NCBI RefSeq assembly: GCF_045037415.1
Contig: NZ_CP173438.1
Source: Escherichia coli
GTDB lineage: Bacteria > Pseudomonadota > Gammaproteobacteria > Enterobacterales > Enterobacteriaceae
Reading direction: 5' to 3' (one strand)
Length of the DNA stretch: 64,000 nt
Shown: positions 50,409-50,730 of the stretch, one piece after another
How positions within the stretch are numbered: position 1 is the first letter of the stretch
How the letters are laid out: every line of letters starts with the position of its first letter
The notes under the pieces: model-generated
Seen by the model: only the letters and a program-made list of their open reading frames with translations
Databases searched by the model: none
What the model was told of the DNA's origin: nothing
Translations under genes and position numbers: made by a program

Positions 50409-50730
50409 GAAACCAGAGCATGCACACACAAAAAAACCGCTTGCCATGCCGCAATCAGTCAGGTTACATTTCCGCTGCACCTCATAAAACGGGTGCCGGG
50501 TTTCGCAGCCTGCTGACTACACAAGCGCACAACCGCGCCAGCGGTTTTTTTGTGCGTACTGTATTGCCACGTTTTTTTCGCGTCAGAATTATGGCGGGGC
50601 GTACGGGGCCGACTTCGGTCGGGCCGGGTTCTTGTGTAGCCGGTACTGCGAACCTCGTACGTCTCGCCACCCACAGTTTCGCAGCTCTGGATGGTGAGTT
50701 TTCACAACTTACTACACAAGGGGCCACACC

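Follow-up and report, generated by a model that had tools for sequence, protein, structure and literature searches.

Positions 50409–50730 of the window (the whole 64,000-nt stretch of Escherichia coli DNA analyzed, on contig NZ_CP173438.1) almost certainly hold an unannotated member of the known IsrK-C4 type of phage RNA immunity switch, together with its three-way RNA pairing. The reading favored as a whole, to which we assign a probability of about 0.85, is that this island is the IsrK-C4 cassette of a P88-like prophage, of the same type as P1 immI, P4 seqA-CI-seqC, and Gifsy-1. By analogy with P1, P4, and Gifsy-1, a functional chain is likely in which an internal promoter gives rise to isrK and C4, C4 occludes the ribosome-binding site (RBS) of an epsilon-like gene with polarity on gene A, and transcripts of the early promoter Pe escape by translational read-through. 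The system itself is already known and no new mechanism is revealed; the novelty is modest, consisting of an unannotated copy of the switch that a widespread genus of P2-like phages carries in its early operon, its direct linkage to gene A and a gene of epsilon type, a rich combinatorial specificity, and a lineage-specific inverted repeat.

Genomic setting and identification of two RNA families

The prophage that carries the island is integrated beside dmsA, and the island lies in its rightward early operon, flanked by a 99-aa ORF (50109–50408) and a 76-aa ORF (50731–50961). With cox, a C-type repressor, and a gpA endonuclease, the prophage gene set is P2-like, and the host element is a P88-like phage of the genus Xuanwuvirus, Peduoviridae (P2 family). 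A 501-nt query was matched by 1282/5426 complete E. coli genomes, about a quarter, in which only hypothetical proteins are annotated, once as "similar to ash family protein". In RefSeq and most phage records the RNA at this locus is unannotated, and nothing about this RNA was found in the literature on Xuanwuvirus.

When the window was searched with Rfam models at their gathering thresholds, two adjacent plus-strand families were detected inside the island. An isrK-like RNA (RF01394; P4 seqA/P1 a1b1 leader) spans 50477–50551 (+), scoring 65.2 bits against a gathering threshold of 50 and covering model positions 1–77 of 77, and a C4 antisense RNA (RF01695; P4 CI homolog) spans 50587–50674 (+), scoring 83.2 bits against 45 and covering positions 1–87 of 87. 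A match to RF03163 (c4-a1b1) at 50464–50516 fell below threshold. The same two models, isrK and C4, were found adjacent in 13/13 related loci, comprising P88, a Citrobacter Xuanwuvirus, nine lambdoid Escherichia and Salmonella phages, a Hafnia phage, and the satellite P4. A covariance-model search had been suggested as a check in an earlier note on this DNA, which had taken the interval for a structured RNA or a replication or regulatory site rather than spacer. The structured and regulatory part of that proposal is upheld by the two Rfam families and by the pairing covariation described below, and the replication-origin alternative fell away. The GC richness noted at the same time is marginal, at 55% as compared to 51–52% in the flanks and the window.

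Scanning the window for tRNA and tmRNA returned none, and the flanking small ORFs and the translated RNA region had no match in NCBIfam. One further Rfam family, STnc130 (RF02084, 137.4 bits), occurs at window positions 45114–45248 (+), between the 5′ end of dmsA and the prophage integrase, that side of the att site being chromosomal.

Promoter, terminator, and C4 structure

A consensus scan identified a promoter-like TTGCCA-N18-TACATT at 50441–50470 (+), with a predicted start at about 50477; the element ends 7 nt upstream of the isrK model start, and a −35/−10 pair occupies the same register in lambdoid and P4 modules. It would correspond to PLE in P4 and to the promoter of isrK in Gifsy-1, its activity being suggested by sequence and position. 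A second promoter-like match just 5′ of C4 (TTGCCA-N17-AATTAT, 50564–50592 (+)) is probably no promoter, because its −35 hexamer is TCGCCA in most relatives and its −10 hexamer coincides with AAUUAU, the leader conserved in the C4 model. The isrK layout comprises two hairpins and a single-stranded stretch, together with a predicted intrinsic terminator at 50531–50551 (+), AACCGC-GCCA-GCGGUU followed by a U tract (6-bp stem and T7), whose helix is 100% paired and invariant.

Within C4, the RF01695 model and covariation together define a closing stem (50592–50608/50653–50669), helix 2 with a UUCG loop (50609–50613/50618–50622), and a further helix (50623–50627/50640–50644) that carries the reader loop b′ (50628–50639), all on the plus strand; the model also places the junction a′ at 50645–50657 (+). 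All three helices are 100% paired among 68 sequences, and four of their pairs have changed on both sides in a compensatory manner. The stable hairpin described earlier as GGGCCGAC-TTCG-GTCGGGCC is real and corresponds to helix 2, with the correction that only CCGAC/GUCGG (5 bp) pairs around UUCG, the flanking G's not pairing with one another. From work on P1 and P4, C4 is expected as a stable RNA of ∼77 nt generated by RNase P-dependent processing of a precursor.

C4 is complementary to target sites on both sides

Four sites flanking C4 on the plus strand are complementary to it. The a1 target (CGGGUUUCGCAG, 50497–50508) and the a2 target (AGUUUCGCAG, 50675–50684, directly 3′ of C4) are complementary to the C4 junction, and the b1 target (CUACACAAG, 50517–50525) to the C4 loop, with covariation in each case; the b2 target (CUACACAAGGG, 50712–50722) overlaps the Shine-Dalgarno sequence AAGGGG (50718–50723), 7 nt 5′ of the ATG at 50731. 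More exactly, CUUGUGUAG (50631–50639), part of the 12-nt loop in C4's second hairpin, complements CUACACAAG both at 50517–50525, inside isrK, and at 50712–50720, and the junction segment CUGCGAACCU (50646–50655) complements (A)GUUUCGCAG at 50500–50508 and 50675–50684. The resulting site order, a1-b1-C4-a2-b2-first ORF, is the order annotated in the phage P1 record.

These sites account for two repeated motifs that had been noticed from the sequence alone and that do occur twice each, GTTTCGCAGC at 50500–50509 and 50676–50685 and ACTACACAAG at 50516–50525 and 50711–50720. Judged by complementarity, they are not pieces of one folded RNA but the upstream (a1/b1) and downstream (a2/b2) targets of the C4 antisense RNA. 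A single direct repeat of at least 10 nt is not rare, arising in 69/1000 dinucleotide shuffles of the 322-nt region; the 10-nt repeats matter here because both complement one intervening RNA, C4.

Covariation and specificity variants

Viral contigs were scanned by pattern, which gave 69 distinct modules of the Xuanwuvirus type in 123 occurrences, and pair counts were made on an alignment of 68 sequences. Explicit pair counting replaced a comparison of RNAduplex self and non-self energies, which was dropped because the energies were noisy from GC-rich stems. Between the C4 reader and the upstream targets, 95.1% of cells are paired and 11 pairs have changed on both sides among the 68 sequences, with a covariation score of 0.530 (shuffle mean 0.142, reached by 0/500 shuffles; maximum of the slid control 0.114). 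The downstream targets behave similarly, with 90.4% of cells paired and 10 pairs changed on both sides in the same 68 sequences, and a covariation score of 0.490 (shuffle mean 0.109, reached by 0/500; slid control maximum 0.133). Taken singly, the b1 pairing comprises 9 pairs, 99.7% paired and 7 of them changed on both sides, and the b2 pairing 11 pairs, 96.4% paired and 6 changed on both sides.

The variants are numerous. At least 14 loop and at least 7 junction variants are joined in at least 23 combinations across the Xuanwuvirus-type modules. In a set of 14 modules that includes the window, the loop, the junction, and the four targets vary between phages and match within each phage, and in 12–13 of these 14 diverse modules the module's own targets are the best duplex partner of its own C4. 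Heteroimmunity groups are predicted from this pattern, readable from two short sequence sites.

The same pattern bears on whether the repeated DNA motifs form a replication origin or a protein-binding site, a reading to which we give virtually no credence. Repeated 10-nt motifs and an inverted repeat beside a replication gene would suit such a site. However, the motifs differ among close relatives, always in step with their complement in C4, which is the mark of RNA–RNA pairing, and since they vary as complements of C4 they are not protein-binding or origin repeats. There is also no iteron array, and in phages of the P2 type the origin is situated within gene A.

Several observations on specificity were made in passing. 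One viral contig (L103:126-386) carries a Xuanwuvirus-type C4 with a duplicated or hybrid second hairpin and two different reader loops, and may be a recombinant of two specificity types. P4-like satellites (L137–L193) show the same combinatorial loop and junction variation, with 14 reader classes among 43 modules. Some a′ junctions are common to several phage types (including L005, L007, L009, and L011) with differing loops: junction ACUGCGAAC is found in the window and in the lambdoid ASU11 and Stx1 phages, and junction AUUUCCACC in P4-like satellites as well as mEp460 and sal3. Cross-immunity between the satellites and Xuanwuvirus phages was considered and is not indicated, because their reader sequences differ, with no overlap between the 43 P4-like satellite modules from which a reader could be extracted (of 57 fetched) and 122 Xuanwuvirus modules.

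A conserved 205-codon ORF spans the RNA genes

The absence of any plausible ORF, as the earlier note had it, proved wrong. An "eta-like" ORF of 205 codons (50420–51037 (+)) spans the whole interval and is conserved. It starts 57 nt upstream of the 5′ end of isrK, runs through the promoter, isrK, C4, and a2/b2, overlaps the entire epsilon-like ORF out of frame, and ends in an ATGA overlap with the following ORF, orf121. Despite the variable sites and indels it is open in 78/80 unique related modules, because the indels sum to 0 or +3 in nearly all haplotypes. Five modules (L029, L030, L052, L114, and L126) combine a +1 insertion in the hairpin of a1 with a balancing −1 deletion at a2, the two falling in columns 84 and 257 of the A2 alignment; other modules have both +1 and +2 insertions. 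Comparable long ORFs that begin 5′ of isrK and are in frame with the downstream gene were found in P4 and seven lambdoid modules; a long ORF across C4 is absent in P1 and three other modules.

Such conservation raises the question of whether the region is simply protein-coding, with a functional 205-aa "Ash/eta-like" protein and secondary RNA features. Along with the open frame in 78/80 modules, this is the reading suggested by database matches, as the translation (window 50420–50680) hits PF10554 (Phage_ASH) in Pfam and, among the PHROGs, families 6928, 821, and 995 ("transcriptional repressor/regulator"). We consider it very improbable. The variation sits in three short sites that change together as Watson–Crick complements and has no codon-position pattern, and in the module group with +1 at a1 and −1 at a2 the frame is shifted over ∼175 nt while pairing is kept. 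The ORF also covers the whole epsilon-like gene out of frame, and P1 and three other modules possess C4 without a spanning ORF. In P4, according to PMC10111431, it is reportedly the translation of eta that matters, not the activity of its protein.

The matches instead carry a caution for annotation. Because the ORF translation matches them, Phage_ASH and some PHROG "transcriptional regulator" families appear to be at least partly translations of RNA genes, as are extended "antirepressor" CDSs; the labels in current use are hypothetical proteins or "Ash family" pseudo-features. Comparable cases are a "cI gene product" CDS still annotated over the CI RNA in the P4 record (L014 8168–8584 (−)) and several lambdoid "antirepressor" CDSs that are extended through both RNAs.

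Downstream genes and proposed mechanism

The first ORF after C4 (50731–50961 (+)) encodes a 76-aa homolog of P4 epsilon, a helper derepression protein, as indicated by BLASTP (29% identity, E 4e-9) and by Pfam PF25738 Derepression (E 7e-8); its counterpart in phage P88 is annotated "derepression protein". It is followed by the 121-aa orf121 (51034–51399 (+)), which has no similarity to P4 orf151, and by gene A, encoding a 940-aa replication endonuclease (51406–54228 (+)). By analogy, the epsilon-like gene would be the first gene controlled by C4, and orf121 and gene A are presumed to be under C4-dependent polarity, as in P4 and P1. Recognition of the IsrK-C4 cassette names the likely controller of antirepressor-like and replication genes in a prophage that is common in clinical lineages such as ST131.

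Family membership, three-way complementarity with covariation, epsilon homology, and the conserved ORF are observed directly, and the mechanism that we propose to connect them borrows from the related systems. The predicted internal promoter at 50441–50470 would initiate near 50477, and most transcripts would end at the isrK terminator to give a ∼75-nt RNA bearing a1/b1. Read-through transcripts would be processed, as in those systems, to a C4 RNA of ∼80 nt. On any transcript entering from upstream, b′ and a′ of C4 could then pair with a2 (50675–50684) and b2 (50712–50722), concealing the RBS of the epsilon-like antirepressor gene. Left untranslated, the transcript would end early, so that the antirepressor homolog, orf121, and gene A would be silent in the lysogen, with the same silencing expected in superinfecting phages of matching specificity. 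The a1/b1 sites may compete for the C4 reader, either in cis or as a short decoy RNA. Promoter activity and RNA processing are assigned here by analogy, and so are the block of translation, the polarity on gene A, and read-through by translating ribosomes.

The escape of Pe transcripts is probably due to ribosomes that translate the 205-codon ORF and pass the terminator, C4, and the targets, as in P4 eta. For P4, PMC10111431 summarizes a constitutive promoter inside eta whose transcripts terminate early and yield CI; full-length eta is made only when transcription comes from a promoter upstream, and its translation blocks termination. The geometry of the 205-codon ORF fits this account, and we therefore infer the same escape route for early-promoter transcripts.

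Several points count against the preferred reading, the missing RNA annotation in RefSeq and most phage records among them. The downstream genes are unlike those of the models, with no icd/ant as in P1 and no in-frame kil or alpha primase as in P4, and the short IsrK of Gifsy-1 activates downstream translation and is not part of a repressor (PMC4825925), so that isrK may contribute in either direction here. The Gifsy-1 precedent suggests a positive switch, in which a cis fold of a1/b1 with C4 in the long transcript would silence the RBS and isrK acting in trans would open it, leading to translation of the antirepressor-like protein and induction. Consistent with this arrangement, the minimum free energy (MFE) fold of a transcript starting at 50477 has a1/b1 paired in cis with the C4 loop and junction, which is the geometry of Gifsy-1 "structure A", and a1/b1 covaries with C4 as strongly as a2/b2 does. 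However, a positive switch leaves unexplained why those C4 bases also covary with a2/b2, including the Shine-Dalgarno overlap, a pattern that marks direct repression of the P1 and P4 kind. Both modes could operate together; we regard the switch as a real if minority possibility, an estimate that is the chance of such a layer existing alongside the IsrK-C4 immunity cassette and is not summable with the confidences attached to other readings.

A long inverted repeat specific to the lineage

A perfect 15-nt long-range inverted repeat had been noted in the island and was recovered, with CACAAAAAAACCGCT (50427–50441 (+)) fully complementary to AGCGGTTTTTTTGTG (50540–50554 (+)) at a distance of 98 nt. 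It extends to 21-nt arms at 90%. The right arm lies over the 3′ half of the terminator stem and the U tract. The left arm lies in the first codons of the 205-codon ORF and forms the left edge of the P88 homology, its A-tract being just 5′ of the −35 hexamer. No perfect inverted repeat of 15 nt was seen in 1000 dinucleotide-preserving shuffles of the 322-nt region (0/1000; maximum 12). The repeat is present in 68/68 Xuanwuvirus-type modules with 99.4% of cells paired, and a search of lambdoid, P4, and P1 modules for an equivalent left arm found none. These results mark the repeat as non-random and lineage-specific.

Its assignment to an RNA structure did not hold in the same way, as it lies outside both Rfam structures and gains no support from covariation. 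Ten of its pairs are invariant and five depart only by unpaired cells, so that covariation is lacking because both arms are nearly invariant. Four variant haplotypes were encountered, one with A7/T7 shortened to A6/T6 on both arms and three uncompensated (T5 in L131; CCAC in L078 and L088).

An RNA helix formed by the repeat could sequester the 3′ half of the terminator and the U tract, such that Pe transcripts, which contain the left arm, would read through and transcripts from the internal promoter would terminate. The helix is non-random, present in all 68 modules, and formed in the MFE fold of 50409–50740, in which the arms pair and C4 keeps its canonical fold; the haplotype shortened on both arms also fits. 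Against it stand the missing covariation and the three uncompensated variants, as well as its absence from lambdoid, P4, and P1 modules. The left arm would moreover vie with the local 5′ half of the terminator for the same strand, which is kinetically unfavorable, and its conservation is explicable by the conserved ORF or by the distance of an UP element from the −35 hexamer. We consider this role of the helix quite unlikely.

A broader picture, speculative and rather unlikely when taken in full, would make the Xuanwuvirus cassette a further layer of immunity that works separately from the C repressor, gating the epsilon-type antirepressor and gene A, with the hypervariable two-site C4 code setting superinfection-immunity groups and the 15-nt helix acting as a "promoter-of-origin" sensor that bypasses the isrK terminator. 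If true, the shared epsilon and C4 module would point to cassette exchange between P4 satellites and helper-type phages.

Relation to known systems

The name "IsrK-C4 immunity system" has been used for P4-like and lambdoid prophages, together with its equivalence to P4 seqA/CI (Barquist et al. 2013, PMC3632133), an equivalence also supported by PMC4825925 and stated likewise in PMC10111431. In P4 itself the C4 model matches at 8420–8507 and the isrK model at 8615–8692, corresponding to the known CI RNA and the seqA leader. The island shares with P4 these two models in the same order, two target sets that flank the antisense RNA, a constitutive-type promoter (predicted here) inside a long ORF begun upstream, and an epsilon homolog followed by replication genes, and its layout parallels both seqA-CI-seqC-kil/eta-epsilon-replication in P4 and a1b1-c4-a2b2-icd-ant in P1. 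Unlike P4, a satellite with alpha primase and sid/psu/delta, the element here is a complete P2-like phage (Xuanwuvirus), in which a gpA-type endonuclease takes the place of alpha primase and orf121 is unrelated to orf151. It has no kil, and the SD-ATG masked by b2 is epsilon's own, out of frame with the long ORF. The isrK-C4 spacer is 35 nt here as compared to 107 nt in P4, the 15-nt inverted repeat has no counterpart in P4, and no reader sequence is held in common with the 43 sampled P4-like satellite modules having a readable reader.

P1/P7 immI (c4-icd-ant; Citron & Schuster 1990, as cited in PMC12197685) has the same C4 family and the same order of a1, b1, C4, a2, and b2, with b2 just 5′ of the first ORF; in both, the downstream target covers the RBS of the first ORF and the output is of antirepressor type. 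In P1, however, the isrK model scores no more than 35 bits, the upstream element belonging to the RF03163 c4-a1b1 type, no ORF spans C4, the genes are icd and ant1/2 whereas a P4 epsilon family member comes first here, and the promoters are under C1 operator control.

The Gifsy-1 isrK-orf45 (STnc1160)-anrP locus of Salmonella (PMC4825925) likewise combines isrK with its own promoter and a leaky terminator (both predicted here), a conserved structured segment, and an antirepressor-like gene, and in both loci the middle of isrK pairs with a downstream segment. The published model differs in stressing activation by short IsrK and in treating the C4 equivalent as orf45 (PMC4825925); the locus belongs to a lambdoid prophage, with AnrP and then AntQ as its output. 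The lambdoid isrK-C4-ant phages (such as Stx2 phage F004, mEp460, and cdtI) are also reminiscent of the island, with adjacent RNAs in the early operon and an antirepressor followed by replication genes, and the record of Stx2 phage F004 annotates both ncRNAs. Identity to these phages is ∼67–74% and begins at the 5′ end of isrK; unlike the island, most of them have the long ORF in frame with ant, and they lack the long inverted repeat.

Beyond gene A, at window positions of about 54300–55600 (L001 10006–11284), genes encoding a segregation protein of ParM type and a partition/stability protein were observed; their presence in an integrated P2-like prophage gives a hint of plasmid-like maintenance as an option, like that of P4.
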